Origin: a virus
Lineage: Duplodnaviria > Caudoviricetes
Direction: 5' to 3' (one strand)
IMG/VR virus record: IMGVR_UViG_3300049174_000045
Span: 1 to 40,907 of that record
Length of the DNA stretch: 40,907 nucleotides
The notes under the pieces were generated by a model. It was not told the origin of the DNA, did no database searches, and saw only the letters and a list, made by a program, of their open reading frames with translations. Positions 2,473 through 38,439 of the stretch are shown here, piece after piece (the stretch's first letter is position 1; the number at the start of each line of letters is the position of its first letter). The position numbers and the translations under genes were made by a program.

Positions 2473-3384
2473 TTACCCTGCAGCGATGACGTTGACCGGC
2501 ATGCGCTCACGCGCCGCCGTGCTGATTTCGCGGTTGAGCCATTGCGCTTCCGCCCAACCGGGATACTCGGGATAGACGATCTCGGTCGGATAGCCTGGCC
2601 AGCGGTTCTGCACGATGCAGCGTTCCCAAATCTGGATCGCATGAGCCAGCTTCTTGCGGCCCATGGTCAGCACGGACTCGGGCAGCTCGCACAGCGTGAG
2701 TGCGTAGGGCTCGGTATTCTCCTGTGCCACGAACCGGAACTTGCGACGTCCGGCATTATCGGGGTCCAGCGCGTCAAGCCCGCGCTCGTGCATCGCAGCC
2801 TGAATGTCCCATCCGCCGTTGAGCATAAGCGAAGGAATCGCGTGTGGTGCGCACGACATGCCGGTTGTTTTGTAGTCGCATACCATGCGCAAGTCTGAAC
2901 GCAGCCAGTCGATCATGCTGCGAAACCAGATGCCGTTATCTTCCCAGATGATGACGGTCTCGCCGCTGCCGCCCTCACCAAACATATCGCCGAGCTGCTC
3001 TTGTGCCACGTCAACCATGTTGCGGGCGCGCACGAAATGGCGCTGAAGGATGGCGACGGTCCCGGCGCGTTCGGCATCCTCGCGGAACGCCTTGGCCTCT
3101 TTGCTGCGCCAAGCGTCGAAGTCTCCGACAGCCACATCCTTACCGCGGCCGATCAGAAGCTTGTGCGCCGCGTTACCGATCGCTTGGGCTGAGTCGTATT
3201 TGTCGACCTCGCCCTCGTCCGCGGCCTTTGCGCCGAGCCTGGGGTGCTGGTGCCATGCGTGCAGCGGCGACTGCTCGAGCAGGATCTTGGCGATCGACTG
3301 CGTCAGCGATGGCTGCGGCGCCGGGTCGGAGAAATAAACCGACGCCGGGACGTCGAAATGGATGCCTTGGCCAAGCTCAGCCAT
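2473..3384 (-). CDS. RecE/exonuclease VIII-like PD-(D/E)XK nuclease
   Basis: SLTQS..K, GNAAH, RSMIDWL...DYKTT, GWDIQAAMH, FRFVAQE motifs; start placed at MAELGQG (3384). Confidence 0.85.
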   Translation of the reverse strand: MAELGQGIHFDVPASVYFSDPAPQPSLTQSIAKILLEQSPLHAWHQHPRLGAKAADEGEVDKYDSAQAIGNAAHKLLIGRGKDVAVGDFDAWRSKEAKAFREDAERAGTVAILQRHFVRARNMVDVAQEQLGDMFGEGGSGETVIIWEDNGIWFRSMIDWLRSDLRMVCDYKTTGMSCAPHAIPSLMLNGGWDIQAAMHERGLDALDPDNAGRRKFRFVAQENTEPYALTLCELPESVLTMGRKKLAHAIQIWERCIVQNRWPGYPTEIVYPEYPGWAEAQWLNREISTAARERMPVNVIAAG

Positions 3385-3505
3385 GGAACACCGCGAACAT
3401 TGCAACGCAGAGCGCAAACAACAGCGGCGCAAGGACCAGATAGAGGACCGGATCGGGCCTCAGTTCGGTGGCGCGGACGTGCGGACCGGTTGGATTGCGT
3501 TTCAT
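3377..3505 (-). CDS. 42-aa single-TM protein (not in ORF track)
   Basis: MKRNPTGPHVRATELRPDPVLYLVLAPLLFALCVAMFAVFHG; start overlaps the upstream stop (ATGA). Confidence 0.55.
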   Translation of the reverse strand: MKRNPTGPHVRATELRPDPVLYLVLAPLLFALCVAMFAVFHG

Positions 3506-4652: not shown

Positions 4653-4682
4653 AAACTACGTCACGGCGCGTGACATTGTCAA
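4653..4682 (-). promoter_or_regulatory. PL-like sigma70 promoter with operator in the spacer
   Basis: TTGACA-N18-TAGTTT; spacer contains palindrome GTCAC-GGCGC-GTGAC (4660-4674). Confidence 0.75.
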
Positions 4683-4736
4683 GGGAGGTAGTCACAATTT
4701 GTGATAATCACGCGTTTGTGATCACGCAAATGTGGC
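4660..4736. promoter_or_regulatory. OL-like operator cluster (RTCAC-N5/6-GTGRY x4)
   Basis: Sites at 4660-4674, 4691-4705, 4707-4722, 4721-4736. Confidence 0.7.
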
Positions 4737-4796: not shown

Positions 4797-4961
4797 ATGC
4801 GCAAACGCAAGCCCAAGAAGACGTCGGCTATCCGAAAGCAAGCGTTTCAAATTGCTCTACAATTGCCTGAAAACAAATCCGACGCAGACGCGGTGCTCAG
4901 CACCGCCCGCAGCCTTCATGAATGGATGAACGGAACCAGTCGCTTGCCCAAGGCCAGCTAG
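4797..4961 (+). CDS. 54-aa protein convergent with the repressor gene
   Basis: GAGGG RBS; MRKRKPKK...AFQIALQLPE; stop overlaps the repressor stop (CTAG). Confidence 0.55.
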   Translation: MRKRKPKKTSAIRKQAFQIALQLPENKSDADAVLSTARSLHEWMNGTSRLPKAS

Positions 4962-5344
4962 CGGCGGGCAGCGTCTCGGGGACGACGACGCTGCCTCTGC
5001 TTGGCTTTTTCTATCAACAGCTTTTCTTGGACCCGCAAATTTTCCTTGAGCTCCGAGGAAAGATAAAATTCGTTCCCGGTGTAAATCCAGTCGAGCGAGG
5101 CTCCGCTGATCTGACAAAGACTTAGCGCCACCGAAACGGTGATGACGCGCTCGGGATCAGACGCCTCATAGTTCGCAAGCTGTGACCGGCCGATCTCGAG
5201 CCGATCAGCCAGGGATTCCTGGGTATGTCCTAGGACTTTCCTCAATAATACCAGACGCTTGCTGATCTTCTCAGCGGTCGCTGGGTTGGAAAATCCGCGC
5301 GGCATGGCGGCCGCAGTGTCTACATACGCAAACATTTCCACCAC
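4958..5344 (-). CDS. CI-like XRE-family HTH repressor (no peptidase S24 domain)
   Basis: RLVLLRKVLGHTQESLADRLEIGRSQLANYE...SLDWIYTG; divergent from a cro-like gene; true start may be 5335 or 5306. Confidence 0.85.
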   Translation of the reverse strand: MVEMFAYVDTAAAMPRGFSNPATAEKISKRLVLLRKVLGHTQESLADRLEIGRSQLANYEASDPERVITVSVALSLCQISGASLDWIYTGNEFYLSSELKENLRVQEKLLIEKAKQRQRRRPRDAARR

Positions 5345-5396
5345 TCACATACTGTGACGCCTTGCATCAAGTCACGACGCGTGGCAAAAAGCAACC
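5345..5396 (+). promoter_or_regulatory. OR/PR-like region
   Basis: TCAC-ATACT-GTGAC (5345-5358) and GTCAC-GACGC-GTGGC (5371-5385); TTGCAT at 5362, 35 nt before the cro ATG; no SD, so cro may be leaderless. Confidence 0.7.
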
Positions 5397-26031: not shown

Positions 26032-29000
26032 ATGGCCGACGATTGGCAGCCGGTTAGTTCCTCGATATCCACACCGCCTGCGCCGCAGACCGGCGATGAC
26101 TGGCAGCCGGTGAGCGCAGCGCCTCCGATGAGCGCGGCCGCGCTTCCGGCTGACGATTTTCGTCCCGTTACGTTCGACAGCCACGACAAGGCACAGCAAG
26201 CCGTCGTGCAAAACACCAGTCTCGGCTCGATCTGGCGGACATTCTCCAGTGGCTATCGCGAGGCGTTTGGCGACGAGCCGCTCGGCATGTCGGACGAGAA
26301 CATTCAGTGGTTCCGCGATCATGGATTTTTCCGCAAGTCTCAATACGGTGAAGGCATCAACGGCGTCTTCCGCGCCTTCAATGAGGGCGTCTTCTACAAT
26401 GGCGCACAGGTGCTCGACTATTTGAGCCGTGGCACCAGGGGCCTGTTTCGTGGTGCCGGTGCGGCAGCATTCGAGGCTGGTGCGCCGCGTGACATCGCTG
26501 GCATCATCGCTGGTGAATATGTACCGGAAGGCGCTTTCGGCGTTCGTTCCGCACGCAACTATCCGCTGCCGCCAACGCCGCGGACTCTTGCCCACGCCCG
26601 CGACCTCGGCGTGATCGGGCCGGAGCGCGCATCGGTTGATATGGCCAAGCCGATCGAGACGGCGGTAGAGGCGGCACGGTCGGGCATCTCGCTTGAGCAA
26701 ATGACCCCATCATTTGATGAGGGAAAACAGATGTTGAGCCAAGCACTCAACGTCTTTGATCAAGGGGAAAAGCGAAGTACTTGGGTTCCCGTACCTGAGG
26801 CAGGTGAGAGTGGATTTGGTATCTATCTCCGTCAAATGAAGCATGGTGATCAGAAAGTTTTAACAATCGCAAATGTCAGATTCGAGCAGCGCGGAACGGG
26901 AGCATTTACAGCATATCTTGATCATTTGGAACGAGAAGCGGCAGCGCGTGGTTACACTAAGATTGAGGCGGAGAATATCGAAAATCCACGCCTTGAGCGT
27001 TTCTTGAGAGATAGAGGCTACAAAGAGGAAGAGGGTTTGCCATCGTTCGGCGGATTGCCAACACTCTCAAAAGAGGTCAAAGATATCCAATCTCGGGAGA
27101 ATTTGCGCAAGCAACTTGAATCTGGCGCCTCGATCAGTGATCTCAATCAGCATCCATATGTTAAGAAAGCGATAGCTGATCAGCAGATACGGCTGCAAAC
27201 TGGAACGCTCGCTGATTTTGAGAATCCGGAATGGCGTGCAGCGCGCGTATTTGATGTTGAGGGTGAGCGCGTCCAAGGTTATGATGCCGCAATTCCAAGA
27301 TTAATCGATCAAGCCAAATCATTTAGTGGTGGTGAAATAGAGAATTTGCGTCACGCAACAATCATCATCGGCCCTCCTGCATCTGGAAAATCTACCATTG
27401 CACAACCTATTGCCCGACAAACTAGATCTGCGCTTGTGGATGCTGACGAAGCCAAGAAAATTATCCCTGAATATCAGGGAGGGCTTGGTACCAGTGCAGT
27501 TCATGAAGAAAGTTCCGTCCTCGCGGCTCATGTCCTTGAAGAACTTGTGGCTCAAGGTGCAAACATCGTCTTGCCAAAAGTCGGAGAGAAGGTGAATCGC
27601 ATTCGCGAAATTTCACAAGGGCTGAAAGAGGCTGGATATTCTGTCGATCTAGTACATGTATCTGTTCCACATGAGGTTTCCGCTCGACGCAATATTCAAC
27701 GATTTCTTGACACCGGACGCCTTGTGCCGCCAGATTATTTAGCTTCGGTCTCTGGAAAAACAAATGAAACCTACCATATCCTCAAAGGAGAGGGACTCTT
27801 CCGTGACACACTCAACATCGATACAACCGCCGGTCGAAAAATCCTCGATGGCGAAGGTCCCCTCTCCGAACTATTCCAAGCAGAGCGAAATTACGGGCCG
27901 GGAACTCGCGAAGGGGATCAAGCGAGCCTTGCAGCGGATCAAGAAGAAATAATCGCTCGGCCCAGTGGGCCCCCGCGCACCATGGCGGCCGAGCGCATTG
28001 GCGATGAAGTGATCCGCGGTCCAGAGCCGGAAGCCAAGCCAAACTCTTGGCGCGAACAGTTCGACCAGTTCGTCGGCAAGATCAAGACTGATCAGGACGT
28101 CAAGGATCTGCTGACCAACGCGGCCGACGAGAATGATAATTTTCCGGCGGCGCGTGAAGGCAAGATCCCGTTGCGACAGGTGGAAAGCCTTGCCGATGCG
28201 GCGGGCGTCGAGCCGACCACGGTCAATCCGGACGGCGTCGGCCGATTGCTGCAGAACGACAACATGGTGCGCAACGCCATGCAGGCCATGCTGCAGGCCA
28301 CCGAGGACGTCAAGGCTGCCGCCCGCGAGGCGCGACTTGATGGCTCAACCGAGAACTTGCAAAAACTCCAAGAGGCTATGCTGCGGCGCGATACATGGGT
28401 CGAGCAGGTCGTTGGCCACCGGGCGGAATGGGGCCGCACCGGCAACGTTTTTCAGGAATTCCTGCAGCGTGTGAAGGACGAGCGATCATTCAGCGACTTT
28501 ATGAAGGATCAGGGTCGCACTCCGGATGGCCTCAAGAAGATCGCCGACGCGCTCGACGGGCTCGATCCGAACCAGATCCCGAAATTCCTGAGCGACGCCA
28601 ACAAGCCGTCGTTTGCAGACAAGGCGTGGTGGTATTGGATGAACGCCCTTATCTCCGGCCCGGTCACCCACGCCAAGTACATGGTTGCGAACGCGGTGTT
28701 TGCCGGTTACGAGGGCGGCCTTGTGACGCCGGTGGCCGGCGCCGTCGGCGCGGTGCGTCGCGGGCTCACAGGCGGCCGTGAAGGGGTGTTTACCGGAGAG
28801 GCTGGTCCGCGGCTATGGGGTCTCGTGGCGGGCGTCCCTGACGCGCTGCAGGCCGCCGTGAAGGCCGTCAAGACCGGCTTGCAGACGCCGCTTCCGGGCG
28901 AGGTGGCTCAGAACATCATCCCGAAGCAGAATGTGGCTTTTGCCTCCAATATCCAGCCGATCCCGGGCTGGTTCGGCAAGATCATCGGCATCCCGAGCCG

Positions 29001-30672
29001 CGGTGCATCCGGCATCCACAGTTTCTTCAATTCACTTGGTTACCGGGCCTCGATCGAAGCGCAGGCCTACAGGCAGGCCGTCAAGGAGGGGTTAAATCCA
29101 GCGCAATCAGGGCCGCCGCCAGTAGCAGATGGTTTGATCCGGTTTTATCATGGCACGAGCTATAAAGACGCCTCTGGATTCACTGGGAAGACCTTCGTCA
29201 CTCCGCATGAGAATTATGCTCGCAACTATCACGGCAGCCAAAACAACGTCCTCTATACTGACTTAACCAAAGATGAGGCCATTGCACGCGGCCTTTATGA
29301 TGAAATCAACAATATCCCGATAAACGGATCGATTGATGATGGTGCAGCGCGACTAAAGCCTCTCGCGCCAGAAACGACGGGCGATAGTTTCTGGCAGCGC
29401 AAGCAGTACTGGTCGAACAACCCCACCCCGGAGATGATGACGCTGGCCAATGAAGAAGGCTACCGGCTGACCTATATCTCCGAGCTCAGCCCAGCCATGA
29501 AAGCGGTCAGCAATGCAGTCCGGAAGGTTCCGGGCGGCCGGTTCATCATGCCGTTCTTGCATATCCCGTTCAACATTCTGACCCGAGCGACTGAGGGCTC
29601 GCCACTCGCCTTCTTGCCGGCCGAGACCCGCGCTGACCTGAAAGGCGCGAACGGTGCCGTGAAACAAGACATGGCGGTCGCGCGCCTGGTGGTCGGCTCG
29701 GCGGTCGGCGCCTGGGCGATGAACATGATCCTCAACGACCGGATGACCGGTTTCGGGCCGACCGACCAGAAGGAACGCGACCAATGGCTCGCGACCGGCC
29801 ACCAACCGTATTCGGTGCGGATCGGTGACTATTGGTACAGCTTCAACCGGTTCGGCTCGATCGGCACTATGTTGGGTCTCTATTCGAACCTCGGCGAGGC
29901 GCTGCCGCATATCAAGCCGGACGCTGAGGAGGCCACCAAGGCGGTCGCCATGACAGTGCATGCCACCGGTCGGCTGCTCGAGGACGAGGTTGGCATGCAG
30001 GGACTCGCCGGTCTGATGGGAGCCATTGACGAACCGGACCGCAAGGGTGCGCGCTACGTGTCGTCCTTCGCGGGCTCCTGGCTGCCATTTTCGTCGCTGC
30101 TGCGGCAGACTGCCAGCGCCATGGACCCGTACATGCGCGAGACAAAATCCGTGGTCGACGGCCTGCGCTACTATATTCCGACCGAGCGGCAGGGGCTCAA
30201 TCCGAAACGCGACTGGCTCGGCCAGCCGATCGCCAACGCTGGCTACGGCGGGGATATCCCGGGCCTGCCCGGAGCATCGGCCATCATCCAACATCGGGCC
30301 GCGGAACCGTCTCCGCTAGCGCTGGAGATGAAGACGCTTGATCTCCATCCGGCGCCGCCCGAGGACCGTATTGCTGGTGTCAAGCTGACGCCGGCACTCT
30401 ATGACCGCTATCAGGCTACCGCAGGCCCGATCACACAGGCCATGCTCGAGCATCTTATGGAAATGCCGAACTGGAATAGCCTGCCTCCTGTGATCCGACA
30501 GGAGGCATTCCAGAAGGCCATCGGCAGCGCCCGCAAGGCAGCGCAGGTCACCATGCAGGTGCAGTATCCCGCGCTGATCCAGGCCGCGGTCGATCAGCGG
30601 ATCAATCATATCAGCGGTGAGCAGCTGTCACGGTCGAAGAAAGCGCCGGCCAGCCTGGAGGGGCTGCAGTAG
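26032..30672 (+). CDS. large polyvalent ejection-type protein with GNAT-like, zeta-toxin-like kinase and ART-like domains
   Basis: DDWQPV repeats; EQRGTGAF..RGY; IIGPPASGKST/DADEAKK/VHEES/TGRLVP; FYHGT..FVT..YARNY; C-terminal PF..IP.NI, QPYSVRIGD, RDWLGQ. Confidence 0.8.
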   Translation: MADDWQPVSSSISTPPAPQTGDDWQPVSAAPPMSAAALPADDFRPVTFDSHDKAQQAVVQNTSLGSIWRTFSSGYREAFGDEPLGMSDENIQWFRDHGFFRKSQYGEGINGVFRAFNEGVFYNGAQVLDYLSRGTRGLFRGAGAAAFEAGAPRDIAGIIAGEYVPEGAFGVRSARNYPLPPTPRTLAHARDLGVIGPERASVDMAKPIETAVEAARSGISLEQMTPSFDEGKQMLSQALNVFDQGEKRSTWVPVPEAGESGFGIYLRQMKHGDQKVLTIANVRFEQRGTGAFTAYLDHLEREAAARGYTKIEAENIENPRLERFLRDRGYKEEEGLPSFGGLPTLSKEVKDIQSRENLRKQLESGASISDLNQHPYVKKAIADQQIRLQTGTLADFENPEWRAARVFDVEGERVQGYDAAIPRLIDQAKSFSGGEIENLRHATIIIGPPASGKSTIAQPIARQTRSALVDADEAKKIIPEYQGGLGTSAVHEESSVLAAHVLEELVAQGANIVLPKVGEKVNRIREISQGLKEAGYSVDLVHVSVPHEVSARRNIQRFLDTGRLVPPDYLASVSGKTNETYHILKGEGLFRDTLNIDTTAGRKILDGEGPLSELFQAERNYGPGTREGDQASLAADQEEIIARPSGPPRTMAAERIGDEVIRGPEPEAKPNSWREQFDQFVGKIKTDQDVKDLLTNAADENDNFPAAREGKIPLRQVESLADAAGVEPTTVNPDGVGRLLQNDNMVRNAMQAMLQATEDVKAAAREARLDGSTENLQKLQEAMLRRDTWVEQVVGHRAEWGRTGNVFQEFLQRVKDERSFSDFMKDQGRTPDGLKKIADALDGLDPNQIPKFLSDANKPSFADKAWWYWMNALISGPVTHAKYMVANAVFAGYEGGLVTPVAGAVGAVRRGLTGGREGVFTGEAGPRLWGLVAGVPDALQAAVKAVKTGLQTPLPGEVAQNIIPKQNVAFASNIQPIPGWFGKIIGIPSRGASGIHSFFNSLGYRASIEAQAYRQAVKEGLNPAQSGPPPVADGLIRFYHGTSYKDASGFTGKTFVTPHENYARNYHGSQNNVLYTDLTKDEAIARGLYDEINNIPINGSIDDGAARLKPLAPETTGDSFWQRKQYWSNNPTPEMMTLANEEGYRLTYISELSPAMKAVSNAVRKVPGGRFIMPFLHIPFNILTRATEGSPLAFLPAETRADLKGANGAVKQDMAVARLVVGSAVGAWAMNMILNDRMTGFGPTDQKERDQWLATGHQPYSVRIGDYWYSFNRFGSIGTMLGLYSNLGEALPHIKPDAEEATKAVAMTVHATGRLLEDEVGMQGLAGLMGAIDEPDRKGARYVSSFAGSWLPFSSLLRQTASAMDPYMRETKSVVDGLRYYIPTERQGLNPKRDWLGQPIANAGYGGDIPGLPGASAIIQHRAAEPSPLALEMKTLDLHPAPPEDRIAGVKLTPALYDRYQATAGPITQAMLEHLMEMPNWNSLPPVIRQEAFQKAIGSARKAAQVTMQVQYPALIQAAVDQRINHISGEQLSRSKKAPASLEGLQ

Positions 30673-30714: not shown

Positions 30715-31761
30715 ATGAGAAAGCTCACGCTCGCCTTCGCCGCCGCGCTGGCCGCTTGGCCGGCATTCGCCCAGCAAACCATCATTCTGCCGCCCGACAG
30801 TGTGTATGGCCGTGTAGGGCCGCCAAATTCTGGGCCTGGTGCCGCAGTTGCGCTACAAACCCTCCAAGGTCGTCTGCTCGCCGGCGAGCGGACGATTGCC
30901 GATACGAACTATTCCGTCTCAGCCACGAACGACGCCACGATCCGGGTCTTCGTCTATACAGCGCTGTCGACCGCGCGCACGCTGACGTTGCTGCCTGCGT
31001 CAAGCTACCTTGCCGGGACGCAACTCACGCTGTTTGACCGATCCGGTTCGGCTTCGGGCTCGAATACCGTCTCGATCGCACCGACCGGCGCCGACCTAAT
31101 CAACGGTACGAATGCGACGCTTTCCGGCGCGATCCAGACCGCACTCGGCGGATTTACGATCGAGACGGATGGCGTGAGCCGATGGACCGTCATCGGCAAT
31201 CCTACCACGAACGCGGCGATCCCAAATTCCAAACTGGCCGCGATGCCGGCTGGCACAGTCAAGTGCAACGACACCGGTTCGTCGACCACGCCACAGGATT
31301 GTGTGCATCTCGCGGCCTATTTCCATAAGAACGGCACAAACCAGACCGGAATGTCGACCGGCGCCTATACGCGCGTCACGTGGTCGACCACTAAGTTCAA
31401 CACCACCGGCGCGGCACTGTCATCGAATACTTGGACCGCGCCGATATCCGGCATGATCTTCATGGAAGGATCGCTATTCTGGAATGCCCATGCGGCATCG
31501 ACAGCAAATCCGAATTTCACGGCCAAGTTCATCAAGAACAGCGCGGGTACCTGCAACGGTGCAGATGTATTTGCCAACGTTGGAACGCCGGTCGTGGGTT
31601 TTCCGACCACGGCGATCACCAAGATTTCGGGCATCGATCAGGCCACTGCGGGCGACGTGTATGAACTCTGCGGCTTCGGCACATCTGACGACTCGCTCAA
31701 TGATCTCGGCCTGGATGGCAATCAGGCTCATACCCATTGGTCGGTGGCCTATATCCGATGA
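30715..31761 (+). CDS. tail-fibre-like protein with Sec signal peptide and C1q/TNF-like C-terminus
   Basis: MRKLTLAFAAALAAWPAFA|QQ; RTLTLLPA...ETDGVSRW module; WTAPISG...AGDVYEL. Confidence 0.7.
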   Translation: MRKLTLAFAAALAAWPAFAQQTIILPPDSVYGRVGPPNSGPGAAVALQTLQGRLLAGERTIADTNYSVSATNDATIRVFVYTALSTARTLTLLPASSYLAGTQLTLFDRSGSASGSNTVSIAPTGADLINGTNATLSGAIQTALGGFTIETDGVSRWTVIGNPTTNAAIPNSKLAAMPAGTVKCNDTGSSTTPQDCVHLAAYFHKNGTNQTGMSTGAYTRVTWSTTKFNTTGAALSSNTWTAPISGMIFMEGSLFWNAHAASTANPNFTAKFIKNSAGTCNGADVFANVGTPVVGFPTTAITKISGIDQATAGDVYELCGFGTSDDSLNDLGLDGNQAHTHWSVAYIR

Positions 31762-33686
31762 AAAAATTTGCGCTGCTCGTCGCTATCTCACTTTCGATGC
31801 CTGCACTCGCGCAGCAGAGCGGCATTCCTCCAATTCCATTGCCGGCCAATACGGTGTTCGGCAATCCACAACCTGTCACGGCTTTCGGCTCCGCTATTCC
31901 GCTCCCGCAGTTCTTGTCCCTGATCTTGCCGGTATCAACGTGCGCAGCTAATCAATTTACGATTGCACTCTCGACTAATGGCATAGCATGCGCTCAGCCG
32001 AATTTTGCTGGTCTTGCAGGTTCAATTGGTTCTGGCCAGATCCCGGCGAATATCATCACTAATGGAATGCTGGCGACTGCGACACAGAACACGGTCAAGG
32101 GTGCGGCGACCTCGACGGCAGAAACGGATCTCGCCGTGCCTAGCTGCTCGACTGCCTCCAGTGCGCTGCAGTGGACGACGAACACAGGCTTCGGCTGCAA
32201 CGCACTGAGCGGATTGTGGATTCATTCCAAGACCTTCGCGACCGGCAACGGCTCGACCGACGACACGACGGGCCTGCAGAATTGGATCAATGCCTGCAAG
32301 GCGGTTGATATTTGCTATCTCGATCCCGGGACGTACAAGACCTCATCGGTTCTGACGGTCAACAACTGCATCAACATCCTCGGCGCGGGCCGCAATCTCG
32401 CAATCCTTGCGCCGTCGAATGCCACGCAGGACACGATAGATATCAACACGACCTGCAATTTTGGGTCGTTTCAGGCCTTCTCTATCATTCCATCGGTGAC
32501 CAAGACCGGTGGATCGGCGATCAGCAGCACGGGCTCATCGAGCAATTTGGTGTGGGTGTATCGCGATATCCAGATCGCTATCGATTTCATTGGGATTACG
32601 TTTGTTAACAGCGCCATTTATACGGTCGACAATGTACTGATCACCTGCACTAACACCTGTATCTCGACTGCTGTCACCGGCGACAGTACGATCACTAATT
32701 CAGTCATCCAGCCAGCGGCCACGAACGCCATCGGAGTTGTCATTGCAAACGGTGCCGGATTACGTTTTGTCAATAATAAGATCAATTCGGTTAGCACTGG
32801 ATCGATCGGCATCTCCTGGCAGGGTACCAATGCTTGCACGACATGTTCCGATCTAGTGATCTCTGGCAACAGCATCGAAGTTGTAGGAAACGGAATCCAG
32901 TTCACCAAAACGACAACACCGTCCTTCGTCAATATCTCGATCACCGGAAATCCAGACATCGCGGCGACAAACACTATCGTGATGAACGATACCACGTCGG
33001 GATGGTTAGGAACGATCACCATCAGCGGAAACACGCTGGAGCCAGTTGGCGGTACGGCCATAACCACGGCTGCGTCGGTCAAAAATATTACGATCGGCAA
33101 CAATACGATTACTGGAAGTAGCGGTGCGACGAATGGCATAACGATTGGTACCGGCACGACAGGCTGCATTATCGGTGTCAATCAGTTCTCCGGTGTCATT
33201 ACCAATTTCACGGATAATTCGGGCACCTGTCGCGGCATGAACGGCGGTGCTCTGCTCGGAACCACGACGAACGATAATGCGATAGCTGGAACGCTCGGAG
33301 AATATGTTTCTGCAACATGCGGAACGGCATCCATCACCAATGCTACACAGACGAATTGTACCAGCATTTCTCTGACTGCGGGAGACTGGGACGTTACAGG
33401 CGTGATCGCTTACGCCCCAAATAACGCGACAACGAATATGCAGGACGGGTTTTGCAGCATTAGCTTGACAAGCGCAACTCTTGATCAAAACACCTTTAAT
33501 TTTGCCAGGGTAGCATATGGAACATCGGGAATAGTTCCAGGCTTGAATGTGACAAACGTGATTGTCTGCCCTATACGCAGAGTAAGCATTGCTACCACAA
33601 CAACAGTTTTCGTAGTTGCGTTCGTCGATTTCAGTGTGAGCACGATGAACTTCAACGGTGGAATTGAGGCCAGAAGAAAACGCTAG
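31758..33686 (+). CDS. tailspike-like beta-helix (pectate lyase 3-type) protein with Sec signal peptide
   Basis: MKKFALLVAISLSMPALA|QQ; FATGNGSTDDTTGLQNWIN...YLDPGTY; I-x-G-N repeats; SISLTAGDWDV C-terminal domain. Confidence 0.8.
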   Translation: MKKFALLVAISLSMPALAQQSGIPPIPLPANTVFGNPQPVTAFGSAIPLPQFLSLILPVSTCAANQFTIALSTNGIACAQPNFAGLAGSIGSGQIPANIITNGMLATATQNTVKGAATSTAETDLAVPSCSTASSALQWTTNTGFGCNALSGLWIHSKTFATGNGSTDDTTGLQNWINACKAVDICYLDPGTYKTSSVLTVNNCINILGAGRNLAILAPSNATQDTIDINTTCNFGSFQAFSIIPSVTKTGGSAISSTGSSSNLVWVYRDIQIAIDFIGITFVNSAIYTVDNVLITCTNTCISTAVTGDSTITNSVIQPAATNAIGVVIANGAGLRFVNNKINSVSTGSIGISWQGTNACTTCSDLVISGNSIEVVGNGIQFTKTTTPSFVNISITGNPDIAATNTIVMNDTTSGWLGTITISGNTLEPVGGTAITTAASVKNITIGNNTITGSSGATNGITIGTGTTGCIIGVNQFSGVITNFTDNSGTCRGMNGGALLGTTTNDNAIAGTLGEYVSATCGTASITNATQTNCTSISLTAGDWDVTGVIAYAPNNATTNMQDGFCSISLTSATLDQNTFNFARVAYGTSGIVPGLNVTNVIVCPIRRVSIATTTTVFVVAFVDFSVSTMNFNGGIEARRKR

Positions 33687-33787
33687 TCGTGCATGCGCCA
33701 ATCCCTGCATGCGGGGATAAGCAGACCAAAATAAAATATGATGAACGCTGCGATCACTCCCAGACTTATCCACCACATGGTCATCAT
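33683..33787 (-). CDS. TM micropeptide (CRDWR; not in ORF track)
   Basis: (MMT)MWWISLGVIAAFIIFYFGLLIPACRDWRMHD; GGAGG RBS. Confidence 0.6.
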   Translation of the reverse strand: MMTMWWISLGVIAAFIIFYFGLLIPACRDWRMHD

Positions 33788-33812
33788 CCTCCGTGGTTGG
33801 CGTACAAGATAA

Positions 33813-33932
33813 TCAGCAGCGCCAGATCGAGCATTCGTGCTGAATGGCAACAGGTGTGGCGGCGGTCTGGCTCATCCAGATCGTGGCCACGGCGATCGTC
33901 GATCCAAGTATCAAGCCTGTGAGAATACGCAT
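33813..33932 (-). CDS. 39-aa TM micropeptide (ECSIWRC; not in ORF track)
   Basis: MRILTGLILGSTIAVATIWMSQTAATPVAIQHECSIWRC; paralog at 37087-37215; TTGCGG-N17-TACGAT just upstream. Confidence 0.65.
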   Translation of the reverse strand: MRILTGLILGSTIAVATIWMSQTAATPVAIQHECSIWRC

Positions 33933-33953
33933 AGAGACAAATCGTATATACGA

Positions 33954-33988
33954 GGGTGCGTTGCCGCAAGTCAAAATTTTAGCATTTT
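33954..33988 (+). promoter_or_regulatory. phage promoter motif copy 7 (lysis promoter), overlapping a divergent promoter
   Basis: GGGTGCG-TTGCCG-N16-CATTTT-N6-ATG. Confidence 0.75.
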
Positions 33989-33994
33989 GCTGAC

Positions 33995-34435
33995 ATGAAT
34001 GATCTTATCTGGAAGATTGCCGGCTGGATATTTCTGGGTACAGCCGTTCTCATCATCATCAAACTAGCGTTTGCCCTTGTCGGTCTAGACGCCTTCCATT
34101 TCGGCTCGCTGGTCACGCCGGCCTATGCCCACGACACCGGTCCCGGCTCTTGGATCAACCATCAGGGCCTCAGGAATCCCCGCACGGGCGCGGCATGCTG
34201 CGGCCCAAATGACTGCACACCCCTACCAAAACAGGTAGTACACCGGGTCGGCGGCGGCTTCCTGGTGGAACATCTCGGCTATCCGAATCGGAACGACTAC
34301 GCGCACATGGGGATGGTTTCGGATTTTATCCCAGACAATGAGATCAACCCCTCAGCCGACGACCAGTATTGGCTGTGCCACGGGGCGGACTTCTCGGTCC
34401 GCTGCTTCATGGCTCCCGTGGGACCAAACACATAA
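33995..34435 (+). CDS. exported Cys-rich protein (CCxxxDC...C...RCF)
   Basis: N-terminal TM, AYA|HD, ACCGPNDC, YWLCH...VRCF. Confidence 0.75.
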   Translation: MNDLIWKIAGWIFLGTAVLIIIKLAFALVGLDAFHFGSLVTPAYAHDTGPGSWINHQGLRNPRTGAACCGPNDCTPLPKQVVHRVGGGFLVEHLGYPNRNDYAHMGMVSDFIPDNEINPSADDQYWLCHGADFSVRCFMAPVGPNT

Positions 34436-34448
34436 CCGGGCTTGATCC

Positions 34449-34958
34449 ATGGAACAAAATTTTACTGAATGTCTCAAATTCGTCCTGGCCGACGAAGAAG
34501 GCAACGATGACGACCCGGCTGATCACGGCGGCAGGACATCCCGCGGTATTACGCAACGGGAATATGACGCCTGGCGCACGGAACGCGGCCAGCCGCACCG
34601 GGACGTATGGACAGCCGATGATGGCGAGATCCGCGACATCTACCATGACGAATACTGGCTGCCGATCTGCCCATCGCTGCCGCAGTCGGTCGATTATCTG
34701 TATTTCGATCTTGCGGTAAACGGAGGTCCGTTCCGGGCCACTATCACACTGCAACGAGCTCTTGGCGTGACCGACGACGGGCGTATCGGCCCAGTGACAC
34801 GAGCGGCCATAGCGGCTGCAGATCCCGAGAAATTGATTGTCGATTTTTCTAATGCAAAACGCGCCTTCTATCGATCCCTACATCAGCAGCGTTTTCTGAA
34901 AGGCTGGCTCAATCGCACCGCCAGTGTTCAATCTCGCGCCGAGTCGATGCTTGCATGA
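34449..34958 (+). CDS. endolysin, glycoside hydrolase family 108 with PG-binding domain
   Basis: EEGNDDDPADHGGRTSRGIT, FDLAVNGG, LQRALGVTDDGRIGPVT, FLKGWLNR. Confidence 0.92.
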   Translation: MEQNFTECLKFVLADEEGNDDDPADHGGRTSRGITQREYDAWRTERGQPHRDVWTADDGEIRDIYHDEYWLPICPSLPQSVDYLYFDLAVNGGPFRATITLQRALGVTDDGRIGPVTRAAIAAADPEKLIVDFSNAKRAFYRSLHQQRFLKGWLNRTASVQSRAESMLA

Positions 34959-35602
34959 GCCTCACCCACCGCGACCTAGCCGATCTCGTGGCCGCGCTCT
35001 ACGACGCCCCGGATAGCGTCCCGTGGCTCTATCGGTCGAACCTCGACGCGAACGTTTACATGGGAATAATCCGGCAGGGTGGGGCGTTCATCGTCGCGAC
35101 GAGGGGATCGTTCGACTTTGAGGACTGGCTGCACGACCTGCGCGCCAAGCCGACCAAGCCTGTTGGTCGCCCCGAGCTCCAGAAGGTCCACGCCGGCTTC
35201 TATGGAGGCACCCCAGAAGCCTGGGACATCATCGCCGAGCACATGGACGACGAGCCGGTGGTGTTCTGCGGGCATTCTCTGGGGGCGGCTCGAGCTGTCA
35301 TCTTGGCCGGCCACATGCTGGCGGTCGGATTTCAACCGACGTTCGTCTGTAGGTGGGGCGAGCCGGCGGCGCTATTCCCCGAGGGCAACGAGTTCATCAA
35401 GGACGTCCCAGGCGTGAGCTATTGCAACGGCGTCGGCCCGTTCGTGGATGCTGTGACGCAGTCGACGCTGCCCTTCGGCTATCGCCATTCAGTCTCGCTG
35501 ACCAATGTGTCCGCGTCGCCCGGGAAGGTCAGCATGCTGGACCCGTTTGCGTTGCACCATTTCGCGCTCTACCAGAGTGTCACACCGACAATGGAGATTT
35601 GA
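34955..35602 (+). CDS. class 3 lipase (alpha/beta hydrolase)
   Basis: VATRGS, DWLHD, VHAGF, GHSLG nucleophile elbow, DAVT, C-terminal His. Confidence 0.88.
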   Translation: MSLTHRDLADLVAALYDAPDSVPWLYRSNLDANVYMGIIRQGGAFIVATRGSFDFEDWLHDLRAKPTKPVGRPELQKVHAGFYGGTPEAWDIIAEHMDDEPVVFCGHSLGAARAVILAGHMLAVGFQPTFVCRWGEPAALFPEGNEFIKDVPGVSYCNGVGPFVDAVTQSTLPFGYRHSVSLTNVSASPGKVSMLDPFALHHFALYQSVTPTMEI

Positions 35603-35604
35603 CC

Positions 35605-35793
35605 ATGATGAAAGGCTGGAAGACTCTAGGATTCGCGCTCGCGCTCGCGCTCGGTGGCGTGCTGCAGACGTTTGATTGGGCCACTGTCATCCCACAGAAT
35701 AAGACATGGTCCGGCGTCGTCATGGTGGCGATTGGCGGGATCGTGGCTGGCTTGCGCGCTATCACGACGACGGCGGTAGGCAAGTCACAATGA
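35605..35793 (+). CDS. putative holin (2 TM)
   Basis: MMKGWKT...LRAITTTAVG; GGAG RBS; lysis cassette. Confidence 0.7.
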   Translation: MMKGWKTLGFALALALGGVLQTFDWATVIPQNKTWSGVVMVAIGGIVAGLRAITTTAVGKSQ

Positions 35794-36299
35794 ACCGCAT
35801 CCTCATCGCATCCCTCGCGCTCGCACTGGCGAGCCCAGCCATGGCGCAGGCGCCGAAGATTGGCGGACCGGCGGGCCGGGTGCTCGACCGGATCGAGGGC
35901 CAGCAGGGCAGCAACGAGGCGCAGCTTGGTGGCGGTGGTCAGGGCGGCGGCATCTGCGACAGCAACGTGATCGGTTCGTTCCAAGCCAAGAGCTTGCTGG
36001 GGCAGATCAAGACTTGCTTGGCGCTCAAAGGCGCGATCGACGCGCAAGCCGCGCTCGACAGCGCCACCAAGGCCAACGATACCGTGGCGCAGACATGCCT
36101 CAAGCCAGTTGTGGCCCTCCTGCAGGCCGCCGAGGGGACAACCACGCCGGGCGCCACATCTGACGCGCCGTCCACGGTGACACCCGCCGGACCGCTACTG
36201 ATCTTCCAGAAATTCCGCGAGTTTGCGCTTGCCGGCGGCGTTCCGAATTGCCGTTCATGGGTCAATACCACGCTTGCTGCAGGTGCACCGATCCAGTGA
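35790..36299 (+). CDS. secreted protein with 4 Cys
   Basis: MNRILIASLALALASPAMA|QA signal peptide; ATGA coupling to the holin. Confidence 0.7.
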   Translation: MNRILIASLALALASPAMAQAPKIGGPAGRVLDRIEGQQGSNEAQLGGGGQGGGICDSNVIGSFQAKSLLGQIKTCLALKGAIDAQAALDSATKANDTVAQTCLKPVVALLQAAEGTTTPGATSDAPSTVTPAGPLLIFQKFREFALAGGVPNCRSWVNTTLAAGAPIQ

Positions 36300-36369
36300 C
36301 GTAAGGCGGGACGCCCAGACGCGGTAACGACTGGACGCCCCTACCACTACCAAGAGGAGCCCCTTGGCA

Positions 36370-36441
36370 ATGGGTACAACCATCATACGGCATTCATCGT
36401 TAAACGGACGTGAATTCGAATGCATTGGGTGTTCCCTATGA
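36370..36441 (+). CDS. 23-aa leader uORF coupled to the downstream TM gene
   Basis: MGTTIIRHSSLNGREFECIGCSL; AGAGGAG RBS in a hairpin; stop overlaps ATG 36438. Confidence 0.45.
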   Translation: MGTTIIRHSSLNGREFECIGCSL

Positions 36442-36704
36442 TCGATTGGTCGATCAGGCTTGGGGACATCGCCGTGCTGGCGGGACTTGCTGGTACCTCG
36501 ATCACGCTCGCATTCAAGGCCGGATCATTCTCGCGCAGCATTTTGGACATGCAGAGCGAGATCAGCGAACTCAAAGATGTGGCAAAATCCATCAGTGGAG
36601 TTCTCACCACGGTAGCTGTGCAAAAGTCTGAAATAGAACACCTACGTACCGACATCGATGACATGAAGCGCGGACGAGGATTTATCAAGCAGGGCAATCC
36701 ATGA
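36438..36704 (+). CDS. N-terminal TM plus coiled-coil protein
   Basis: MIDWSIRLGDIAVLAGLAG...; heptad pattern. Confidence 0.7.
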   Translation: MIDWSIRLGDIAVLAGLAGTSITLAFKAGSFSRSILDMQSEISELKDVAKSISGVLTTVAVQKSEIEHLRTDIDDMKRGRGFIKQGNP

Positions 36705-37090
36705 TGCACGGCGACGTGAAGAAATGGACGATTACCGTCGGCGGCGTCGGCGCCGTCATCGGCGTACTGCTCAGCGGCATGAAATTGTATCAAGAGCTCG
36801 GCCTGCCCATGATCGCCACGCAGGAGCATGTCGAGCAGAAACTCGCCCCTGTTATCAGCAATATACAGGGAATGCGTAATGACGTGAGCGGCATTGCCCT
36901 AGAACAGGCATTGCAACAACGGGCCCAGATCGAAAATCATATTGCCCAATGGACGCTAGAACTTAGTCGCGAGACGACAGACGAGCGAAAAACGCTAGAT
37001 CAGGCGCAGATCAATGATCTCACTGATCACCTCAATCAAGTCAAGCGCCACATCGATCAGCTACAGCGCGATGCCTACGGGGCGCATTAG
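36701..37090 (+). CDS. N-terminal TM plus coiled-coil protein
   Basis: WTITVGGVGAVIGVLLSG; helical C-terminus. Confidence 0.7.
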   Translation: MMHGDVKKWTITVGGVGAVIGVLLSGMKLYQELGLPMIATQEHVEQKLAPVISNIQGMRNDVSGIALEQALQQRAQIENHIAQWTLELSRETTDERKTLDQAQINDLTDHLNQVKRHIDQLQRDAYGAH

Positions 37091-37215
37091 AGACATCGCC
37101 AGATCGTGCACTCCACCACCTGTCGTTGGTCGACATATTGCGGTGCAAACCACATGGTTGCGACGGCTGCGCCCAGAAGCGCGATGATTGCTGAGATCCT
37201 GAGTGTGTGGTTCAT
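37087..37215 (-). CDS. 42-aa TM micropeptide (ECTIWRCL; not in ORF track)
   Basis: MNHTLRISAIIALLGAAVATMWFAPQYVDQRQVVECTIWRCL; GGAG RBS. Confidence 0.7.
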   Translation of the reverse strand: MNHTLRISAIIALLGAAVATMWFAPQYVDQRQVVECTIWRCL

Positions 37216-37232
37216 GGTACTCCACTCTTCAT

Positions 37233-37457
37233 CTATGTGCGCCATGGTTTTCCGGTTAGCTCAATGCCGGGAGCAAAGTTGCTAGACCAGTCGAGCCATC
37301 GCGCATAGCCTTGATCCACCAACCAACGCGCCGCTCGATAAAGCTCGGGGTCAGGCCCGCGAGGGGGTCGCCGCATCAGCAGATAGCGACCGCCTCCAGT
37401 GTTTGCTGCGCGAAGCCACATCCCACGCGCGCCGGTGTGCTGGTCTATGTAACGCAT
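37233..37457 (-). CDS. hypothetical protein
   Basis: TAAGGA RBS. Confidence 0.65.
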   Translation of the reverse strand: MRYIDQHTGARGMWLRAANTGGGRYLLMRRPPRGPDPELYRAARWLVDQGYARWLDWSSNFAPGIELTGKPWRT

Positions 37458-37613
37458 CGCGTTCCTTACCTATCATCGCTGCATAGAAAGATCGTGCCGC
37501 ATTGCCGATAGTTGCGCAGCATCGGAGAGCCTGTGATGCTCCACACGAAAGCGGTCGAGAAAATCGCAAGTATCCAAACCGCGATTGCCTGTTTCATCGC
37601 GTTCCTTACCTAT
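37455..37613. repeat. 19-bp direct repeat CATCGCGTTCCTTACCTAT x2
   Basis: Exact copies at 37455-37473 and 37595-37613. Confidence 0.85.
37466..37597 (-). CDS. 43-aa TM micropeptide (QCGTIFLC; not in ORF track)
   Basis: MKQAIAVWILAIFSTAFVWSITGSPMLRNYRQCGTIFLCSDDR; TAAGGA RBS. Confidence 0.65.
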   Translation of the reverse strand: MKQAIAVWILAIFSTAFVWSITGSPMLRNYRQCGTIFLCSDDR

Positions 37614-37779
37614 GTGTGATTTCGTGCCTCGCTGAGAGCCACGCAATCACTTCCTTTAGAGTGAAATGCCGAGGGGGGCCACCCAAGGCGATCCGAAAGG
37701 CGTCCCATGCCATGCAGATCGCGAACTCTTGCGGCCACCAACTCCGTCCGTTGTATTCAAGTTTTCCCATCGCCGTCAT
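37606..37779 (-). CDS. 57-aa hypothetical protein (not in ORF track)
   Basis: MTAMGKLEYNGRSWWPQEF...; ATGA coupling. Confidence 0.55.
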   Translation of the reverse strand: MTAMGKLEYNGRSWWPQEFAICMAWDAFRIALGGPPRHFTLKEVIAWLSARHEITHR

Positions 37780-38066
37780 TGCCCATCACGGCGTTCATGC
37801 AATATGCGGTTAAATGCTGCCGTGTGTTGATCCGCAAGAATTGATATTTGAGCACATGGGATGGTTCCATCGTGCGCCTGCCGAGTCAGAAAGGCAACCA
37901 TCACCTCGCGGAATAGTTTTGCAGCGTCGCCCTCTATCTTTTCATTCTCCGCGCGGAGGCGGTCGATCTCGTCGGCAGCAGAAAGACGGAGCACAAAATC
38001 CCCAGCCGGCTTTTTTGGATATGCTGGGTCGCGCAAGCGTTCGATGATATCTCTGCTATCTGTCAT
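37776..38066 (-). CDS. hypothetical protein (DIIERLR...AADEIDRLRAE type)
   Basis: Common phage early-protein motif. Confidence 0.7.
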   Translation of the reverse strand: MTDSRDIIERLRDPAYPKKPAGDFVLRLSAADEIDRLRAENEKIEGDAAKLFREVMVAFLTRQAHDGTIPCAQISILADQHTAAFNRILHERRDGQ

Positions 38067-38299
38067 GGCGTTCCATCCGCGTGACCGCTCTGCACGTTGA
38101 TGACTACCCCAATCCCGCGCATCCTGAGAATCGCATGACCGGTCTCCGTCAAGCGCCAGTAATGGCCGTCATAAGTGACCAGCCCGTGGCGGTTATCATC
38201 TTGGCTGATCTGCGGGCCGAGTTCTTGCGGCGTTGCAGCGCCATCCCATCGCTTGAGTTTGCGAAGAAATTCCATCTGCTTTTCGTCAACTGTTTTCAT
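38063..38299 (-). CDS. small winged-helix-like protein
   Basis: GLVTY...YWRLTETG; GAGGA RBS. Confidence 0.6.
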   Translation of the reverse strand: MKTVDEKQMEFLRKLKRWDGAATPQELGPQISQDDNRHGLVTYDGHYWRLTETGHAILRMRGIGVVINVQSGHADGTP

Positions 38300-38331: not shown

Positions 38332-38439
38332 TCACCATGGAAGACGCGGCTTCGCGGTTGCAATTAGAAGAAAGATCAGCACAGCGCCAATCGCGATCCC
38401 GCCAACAAAGGCTATGATTACGGAGACTGTTTCATCCAT
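38332..38439 (-). CDS. 35-aa single-TM peptide (not in ORF track)
   Basis: MDETVSVIIAFVGGIAIGAVLIFLLIATAKPRLPW; GGAG RBS. Confidence 0.55.
   Translation of the reverse strand: MDETVSVIIAFVGGIAIGAVLIFLLIATAKPRLPW

Follow-up and report, generated by a model that had tools for sequence, protein, structure and literature searches.

Duplicated 40-Residue Membrane Proteins with a Predicted Disulfide Tip in an Uncultured Soil Phage

Introduction

Small membrane proteins are plentiful in phages, and most of them are unexplained; to our knowledge, the exclusion systems of alphaproteobacterial phages are poorly described. Here, we report on P1, P2, and P3, three minus-strand open reading frames (ORFs) of about 40 codons, and on P4, a shorter ORF beside P1, all of which lie on the 40,907-base contig of an uncultured soil phage (Duplodnaviria; Caudoviricetes; record IMGVR_UViG_3300049174_000045). 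This whole stretch is referred to as the window.

Four described systems come closest, and the accounts of them are used here in excerpt. MgrB (PF13998), the PhoQ inhibitor of enterobacteria, is a small bitopic protein that has a short N-terminus in the cytosol, a functional tryptophan (W20), and an essential periplasmic C28-C39 disulfide, and it acts on PhoQ through its membrane helix and its periplasmic part (PMC10576120). The gp15 protein of HK97, an Escherichia coli siphophage, is a small moron protein of the inner membrane and prevents genome entry; it forms an independent unit among the late genes and is expressed from the prophage, and the excerpted account mentions no disulfide tip (PMC3594210). 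SieA of P22, a temperate short-tailed phage with ejection proteins, is an inner-membrane protein carried by only 22 of 66 relatives, and its escape mutants map to the ejection proteins (PMC10883804). The T4 antiholin RI has a signal that is cleaved and a soluble, folded domain of ~70 residues, which binds the periplasmic domain of holin T, and it inhibits its own holin from the periplasm (PMC8385771).

The phage peptides share with MgrB the small size, the predicted bitopic topology in which the N-terminus is short and cytosolic, the Trp near position 20, and a predicted periplasmic Cys pair; however, MgrB is a chromosomal gene of Enterobacterales whereas P1-P3 are phage genes, and none of P1-P4 matched PF13998 in Pfam. 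P1 and P4 are placed and, as predicted, wired like gp15, with no terminator found for them, and the phage, like P22, is short-tailed, probably temperate, and equipped with ejection proteins; nevertheless, no match to gp15- or SieA-type exclusion proteins was found in PHROG, Pfam, NCBIfam, or PADLOC, and the peptides have no sequence similarity to SieA. With RI they share the small size, the N-terminal hydrophobic segment, and the presumptive periplasmic site of action. By the sequence features tested, the peptides would be members neither of the MgrB, SieA, gp15, or RI families nor of the host family described below. In how they work, P1 and P2 most likely resemble the small accessory proteins with which temperate phages act on the envelope. 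In particular, we tentatively propose, at somewhat less than even confidence, that P1 and P2, and probably P3, are inner-membrane proteins with a periplasmic disulfide ring that would block DNA entry of competing phages.

Results

Paralogy and Membership of the Peptides

An earlier note on this DNA had claimed a family of four minus-strand membrane micropeptides with a C-terminal cysteine motif. All four ORFs are present (table 1; P4 has 34 residues in its longer form), and each carries an N-terminal hydrophobic stretch, with best 19-residue Kyte-Doolittle means of 1.77, 1.92, 2.01, and 2.44 for P1 to P4. Their reported absence from gene calls held for the ORF track used at the time, but a public protein collection lists P1 (39 amino acids) and also P2, as a 52-amino-acid call corresponding to an alternative start at 37245; both entries come solely from this contig.

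The claimed paralogy of P1 and P2 was borne out: their alignment score of 55 was reached by none of 5000 shuffles and by none of 539 decoys, which were small membrane ORFs from related phages. Two shared blocks hold 11 identical residues, among which 9 codons are degenerate and 6 of these differ silently at the third position; as the blocks were picked for identity, this count shows diverged DNA beneath kept residues and is no formal dN/dS. Judged from these codons, the likeness is protein-level conservation and not a DNA repeat. The linkers between the conserved blocks have fully diverged, while conservation falls on the ring and on the helix's outer half, which is the pattern expected if those two parts touch a partner.

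P3 has the same build, namely a helix, a Trp, 13 residues, and a Cys pair. In local alignment and against a hidden Markov model of P1 and P2, however, it scored at background, with 433 of the 539 decoys scoring equally high; when the tails were aligned globally, under post hoc settings, the score was matched by 4 of 5000 full shuffles and by 46 of 5000 when W, C, and C were held fixed. Thus, P3 is a probable distant member of the family. P4 was rejected as a member: its 31-residue form, the one with a Shine-Dalgarno site, has a single Cys at position 24 and no positive charge before the helix, and its similarity to P1 and P2 is at background level against shuffles and the 539 decoys. It is likely a real gene cotranscribed with P1. 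The family thereby shrinks from the four members first claimed to two or three, and the motif C-x4-C, said to run throughout, gives way to C-x5-C in P3 and to one Cys in P4. The termini had also been misplaced, since four residues follow QCGTIFLC in P3 and three follow ACRDWR in P4.

Table 1. Coordinates of the Peptide Genes and Associated Features (Window Positions unless a Locus Is Named)
Feature	Position	Strand	Description
P1	33813..33932	-	39 amino acids; predicted single helix ~3-21, W19, C34-x4-C39 at the extreme C-terminus; no Shine-Dalgarno site
P2	37087..37215	-	42 amino acids; helix ~7-25, W22, C36-x4-C41; GGAG before the start
P3	37466..37597	-	43 amino acids; helix ~4-22, W19, C33-x5-C39, four-residue tail; flanked by the exact 19-nt repeat
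P4	33683..33787	-	31-34 amino acids; single helix, one Cys; GGAGG 9 nt before the ATG at 33778
ORF of unknown function	37233..37457	-	74 amino acids; between P3 and P2, same operon
19-nt exact repeat, copy 1	37595..37613	-	upstream stop codon, Shine-Dalgarno site, and ATG of P3
19-nt exact repeat, copy 2	37455..37473	-	P3 stop, Shine-Dalgarno site, and ATG of the 74-amino-acid ORF
Candidate sigma70-type P1 promoter	33941..33969	-	TTGCGG-17-TACGAT; ends 8 nt before the ATG
Late motif copy	33952..33969	+	18 nt; before the lysis cassette, 20 nt from the P1 start, pointing away
Host family members	L323:1084-1404, L324:1258-1653, L325:1444-1872, L327:1447-1836, L331-L345

Shape and Predicted Topology

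The shape of the peptides was examined with a filter devised after they had been seen (a short ORF with an N-terminal helix, a first Cys beyond the helix, and a Cys pair near the end). It returned exactly P1-P3 in the window and nothing in 1,336,937 bases of related phage loci, which overlap one another; shuffled sequences gave a mean of 0.02, and none of 100 reached three. A looser filter returned 5 ORFs in the window and 30 in the relatives, compared with a shuffle mean of 0.36 and 1 shuffle of 100 reaching three. As far as these filters tell, the combination of helix and Cys pair exceeds chance. Short ORFs that combine a single helix with a ribosome-binding site are themselves common: 13 relatives have 27 of them, 19 on the strand opposite the late genes, and 3 of the 27 carry at least two Cys after residue 20. 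The new element is the repeated Cys tip; small single-helix ORFans as such are common in these phages. The window holds further small single-helix ORFs at 38332-38439 (-) and 3377-3505 (-), on the early strand, with ribosome-binding sites and without a Cys pair.

In P1-P3, one Lys or Arg precedes a hydrophobic run of 18-19 residues that ends near the Trp, which predicts an anchor with the N-terminus inside and the C-terminus outside (N-in/C-out). The Trp is followed by the first Cys after 13 residues in P2 and P3 and after 14 in P1. In the proteobacterial periplasm, DsbA oxidizes paired Cys, and a disulfide ring of six residues makes a stable loop for binding. Of the periplasmic, disulfide-looped tip bound to a host target that had been claimed, the predicted topology retains the location; the disulfide and the target would still have to be assumed.

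The same segment could also be read as a cleavable signal, with A-V-A in P1 and P2 and S-T-A in P3. The Trp would then lie at +3, and disulfide-ring products of 23, 23, and 27 residues would be released into the periplasm or the medium as signals or inhibitors. Consistent with such secretion, the best-conserved N-terminal block is A-x-A followed by T, the products of P1 and P2 would be equal in length, and T4 RI demonstrates that an N-terminal helix of a phage protein can be a cleaved signal (PMC8385771). However, no receptor, transporter, or protease gene is recognizable nearby, and the hydrophobic residues run four positions past A-x-A to give an 18-19-residue helix with an interfacial Trp. 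Such a helix is typical of an uncleaved anchor. We consider the processed signaling peptide, one of the roles offered by the earlier note, an unlikely alternative to the anchored form.

Transcription of the Peptide Genes

P2, P3, and P4 have Shine-Dalgarno sites (GGAG before the start at 37215, TAAGGA, and GGAGG, respectively). P1 is preceded by a candidate promoter of a pattern that 3 of the window's 1455 ATGs display; as read from its position, this promoter would yield a leaderless mRNA. On the opposite strand, the region holds one of five plus-strand copies of an 18-nt motif with the core GGTGCGTTGCC, which stand between or before late genes (11692, 16729, 19889, 30671, and 33952; up to 3 mismatches allowed, shuffle mean 0.08); the core recurs in 3-4 copies in each of five relatives (L074, L076, L077, L256, and L304). 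The motif is a likely late-promoter element of the phage group, and the copy at 33952 is the likely late promoter of the lysis cassette, divergent from P1. Two further candidates in this region were discarded: an apparent sibling promoter at 33954 turned out to be the window's own repeated late motif, and a 12-bp palindrome at 33942, considered as an operator, is one of a kind of which the window holds 26 perfect examples. Inverted repeats of the form TCAC-N5/6-GTGA and a TTGACA element lie around the repressor gene (4661-4720 and 5345-5357), where they are candidate operators and a candidate leftward promoter; the inverted repeats cluster at 4661-4708 and 5345, and none of them lies near P1.

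As claimed earlier, two of the ORFs overlap stop codons of convergent late genes: the P4 stop overlaps that of the tail-fibre gene (33684-33686), and the P2 stop that of the last late gene (37088-37090). P1 and P4 would make up a leftward unit of their own, set in between two late transcripts; the G+C content of the P1 unit is ~0.51 compared with 0.59 overall, and the adjacent end of the fibre gene is equally low. P3, the 74-amino-acid ORF, and P2 are the final genes of a leftward operon that enters from the right end of the contig, with P2 last; the 74-amino-acid ORF had no family in the Pfam and PHROG scans. P1 and P2/P3 sit outside the late transcription program.

These arrangements bear on the idea that the peptides are antiholin-like lysis-timing factors acting on the holin or on other membrane proteins of the adjoining cassette. 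The peptides do flank the endolysin (GH108), lipase, and holin-like genes, and T4 RI provides a phage precedent for periplasmic inhibition of a holin (PMC8385771). Nevertheless, they lie on the opposite strand, with P1 divergent from the late transcripts and P2 and P4 converging on them; that P1 faces away from the likely late promoter and that P2 and P3 end an early operon argues against lysis timing. In addition, the peptides offer a tip of only ~20 residues, the 62-amino-acid holin candidate has neither a Cys nor a large periplasmic domain of the kind bound by RI, and none of the 35 loci with related endolysins holds a peptide of this type. Thus, lysis timing, which had been listed among the possible roles, is disfavored and appears very improbable. 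The reported bracketing of the lysis cassette is correct in position, but it does not extend to strand or promoter; the peptides bracket the cassette because these places are the accessory slots of the genome, and not because they belong to it.

The slot of P3 is marked by the 19-nt exact repeat (shuffle mean 0.00). A second contig of the source run X1 (depth ~7) shares this repeat and two short upstream pieces, within 37594-38087, and carries other sequence between the shared pieces and at the place of P3, although this comparison is weak, resting on one contig with a side of 21 letters. The comparison suggests that the place of P3 is an exchangeable slot and that the second contig may be a sibling phage with a different gene there. 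The peptides could be near-neutral or decaying ORFans, that is, real frames acquired with exchangeable cassettes and having little present function. In keeping with this, P1-P3 come from a single contig of a single sample, P3 lies between exact repeats next to which another contig has different sequence, and the linkers have fully diverged. However, the tip is the same in two intact copies whose synonymous sites are nearly saturated, and a third ORF has the same shape; near-neutrality or decay is improbable as an explanation.

The Phage and Its Likely Host

The contig is classed as a linear virus record and is ~92% complete. The data sets listed as containing it comprise a single soil metagenome run, which may be its source, and no RNA data set. 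The Pfam and PHROG scans mark a short-tailed phage, with terminase, head-tail connector, capsid, tail proteins, and internal virion proteins, followed downstream by the fibre genes, the GH108 endolysin, and the lipase. The layout is lambdoid, with a repressor-like gene at 4958-5344 (-), a cro-like gene, RusA, and replisome organizer/replication genes, and 11 of 16 related records contain an integrase. The phage is probably a temperate podovirus with a host of the Hyphomicrobiales. Its capsid relatives sit in metagenome-assembled genomes (MAGs) of Hyphomicrobiales (71%) and Reyranella (54%), which makes an alphaproteobacterial host likely.

Several neighboring genes were also recorded. The 1546-amino-acid internal virion protein at 26032-30672 (+) contains a zeta-toxin/polynucleotide-kinase-like P-loop domain at about residues 442-592. 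The fibre-like genes at 30715-31761 and 31758-33686 (+) both begin with N-termini resembling Sec-type signal peptides and encode even numbers of Cys (4 and 18), a pattern resembled by the ORF at 35790-36299 (4 Cys). The head of the lysis cassette at 33995-34435 (+) is a 146-amino-acid ORF with a hydrophobic N-terminus and a C-terminal domain containing 5 Cys, for which Pfam and PHROG gave no family and the locus search no viral relatives. The gene immediately after the endolysin, at 34955-35602 (+), encodes a class 3 lipase, and a 45% identical copy occurs in G017.

Distribution of the Peptides

The duplication within the window is the sole evidence of conservation. Conservation in related phages failed to appear, as 50 related records gave no convincing match and no match in shape; 1 of the 50 had a match at E <= 1 (E 0.115), which lies in a 253-amino-acid frame. 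A word search with P2 among 5.8 billion proteins found only itself, the P1-P3 profile found only P1 and P2 there, and HMMER on 1.84 billion representatives gave two self matches and two repeat-rich artefacts. Related-locus searches yielded no true homologue among 36 viral candidates, 121 metagenome candidates, and 14 genome contigs, and two MAGs contained none. Neither the motif scans (17 viral matches and 120 of ~400 metagenome matches inspected) nor the scan for W-x13-C-x-I-W-R-C (120 of ~300 viral loci, 122 matches) revealed a peptide with a helix and a short tail. With tblastn, P1, P2, and P3 on cultured phages and P2 on plasmids gave nothing better than E 4. Foldseek on BFVD, the PDB sequences, and Rfam gave 0 matches each, and the best ESM Atlas hits (0.77 and 0.81) are unnamed clusters of 49-53 amino acids, which serve as leads only; clusters of 53 amino acids with 97 and 59 members head the lists for both P1 and P2. 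Among 351 genus-level genomes, 7 matches were found versus ~7 expected; among 301 family-level genomes, the profile made 15 matches at E <= 0.02 versus ~6 expected, attributable to the helix only or to chance.

The statement that the family is not a recognized one stood, with no match in Pfam, PHROG, NCBIfam, PADLOC, or PDB; as these searches are insensitive with 40-residue queries, the peptides are best called orphans so far. In the open-access literature, neither these peptides nor an MgrB-like protein from a phage turned up, which is a weak negative because unnamed peptides are hard to search for.

An Unnamed Host Family of Similar Architecture

Four of the 15 weak matches belong to one chromosomal family of the Hyphomicrobiales, with a single helix, a Trp, 13 residues, an invariant C-x3-G-R-x2-C, and a short tail (alignment A5). 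The family counts at least 6350 members among 7998 candidates scored, is annotated as "hypothetical protein", and has no Pfam or NCBIfam name. It occurs as several paralogs per genome, with one copy in a viral contig (L331). The long form often stands just upstream of an acyl carrier protein gene (PRK06508) and a FabZ-like gene (L324 and L332-L335), which we take to be acpXL and fabZXL, genes for the very-long-chain fatty acid in lipid A synthesis; two members (L323 and L325) are convergent with an RlpA-like gene, and short paralogs occur elsewhere.

The phage peptides share with this family the single helix, the Trp, the 13-residue gap (14 in P1), the Cys pair, the short tail, and the probable host order. 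The host proteins differ in having a seven-residue loop with the invariant G-R, a cytoplasmic N-terminal extension, and ~59-140 amino acids; their C-x3-G-R-x2-C is missing from P1-P3. The hhalign probability was 92.5% for P1-P3 and 63.4% for P1 and P2 alone, in a pair chosen from the matches and with a signal driven by the helix, and the AlphaFold2 (AF2) models of P2 and of the host family both have a helix that ends at the first Cys. When scored with a profile built on 14 further host members, which were those not picked by the phage profile, P2 reached 6.4 bits, a borderline value attained by 6 of the 539 decoys and by 9 and 26 of 1000 shuffles, whereas P1 and P3 did no better than background, being equaled by 76 and 440 of the 539 decoys. 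A host-family profile of 18 sequences found nothing in the window at E <= 0.5. On these comparisons, the two groups appear to share an architecture, with homology unproven.

The peptides could modulate a host regulator of the envelope in the manner of MgrB, or mimic one, in which case their helix and ring would bind a sensor kinase or another membrane protein, possibly by imitating the host family. The topology, disulfide, and W20 of MgrB are in line with this, as is, as a lead only, an ESM Atlas MgrB cluster at 0.76 for P2; however, the spacing W-x7-C-x10-C of MgrB differs from the W-x13/14-C-x4/5-C of the phage peptides, and the mimicry form is set back by the background scores and the missing loop motif. 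We regard modulation or mimicry as possible but rather doubtful. The further proposal that the phage trimmed a conserved, disulfide-looped host membrane regulator to a triplicated 40-residue mimic, with which lysogen and infected cell would remodel the envelope, is speculative and has a low probability; if true, it would present a phage-borne MgrB-like regulator acting through an undescribed host pathway.

Discussion

The mechanism we propose is superinfection exclusion, which the earlier note had listed among the possible roles, as it had sensor-kinase modulation. P1 and P2 are duplicated phage genes and P3 is a probable distant third copy, and their products of ~40 residues would cross the inner membrane once in the N-in/C-out orientation. 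The helix would continue 13-14 residues past the interfacial Trp and end at the first Cys, where the host periplasmic oxidase would close a ring of six or seven residues, with its conserved I-W-R face as the putative binding surface. P1, with P4, would be transcribed from its own promoter and, because no repressor-operator-like site lies near that promoter, would be on in the lysogen, whereas P3 and P2 would be expressed at the end of the early leftward operon. A single function would then be exerted at the inner membrane both in the lysogen and in early lytic growth, and the attackers would be phages with short tails, which assemble a conduit for ejection across the periplasm. Such a supply, in a host attacked by podoviruses, fits exclusion of the SieA or gp15 kind. 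SieA escape mutations fall in ejection proteins, and this phage encodes internal virion/ejection proteins of that kind. The absence of the peptides from 50 related records matches the behavior of accessory "moron" genes.

Several observations weigh against superinfection exclusion. SieA has 162-164 amino acids, three predicted helices, and a cytoplasmic motif, and its gene lies between genes 16 and 9 (ejection/tailspike), as given in the excerpted account (PMC10883804), whereas P1 follows the fibre genes. P1 lacks a Shine-Dalgarno site, its candidate -35 element is the reverse complement of part of the plus-strand late motif, and a stricter scan for promoters and terminators reported neither a promoter ahead of P1 nor a terminator downstream of P4 or P2. 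The AF2 model of P2 (helices 3-22 and 25-38; mean predicted local distance difference test score 73.8) has a low-confidence tip (~63-67) and shows no disulfide. No integrase was found on the 92%-complete contig, and no homologue that could support synteny or conservation across phages turned up. Finally, single-helix ORFs are so common in the phage group that position and hydrophobicity fail to single out exclusion. Some probability lies beyond the five readings (exclusion, envelope modulation or mimicry, secretion, lysis timing, and near-neutrality) and is left unallocated.

The peptides form a real family, smaller than first claimed and confined to one genome, and as a single-genome orphan it is of modest importance at present. 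A duplicated 40-residue protein with a conserved predicted disulfide tip is cheap to synthesize, and Cys-to-Ser replacement provides a built-in control. If exclusion is true, the peptides would be a very small exclusion device; if mimicry of the host family is true, they would open a family of thousands of proteins to study.

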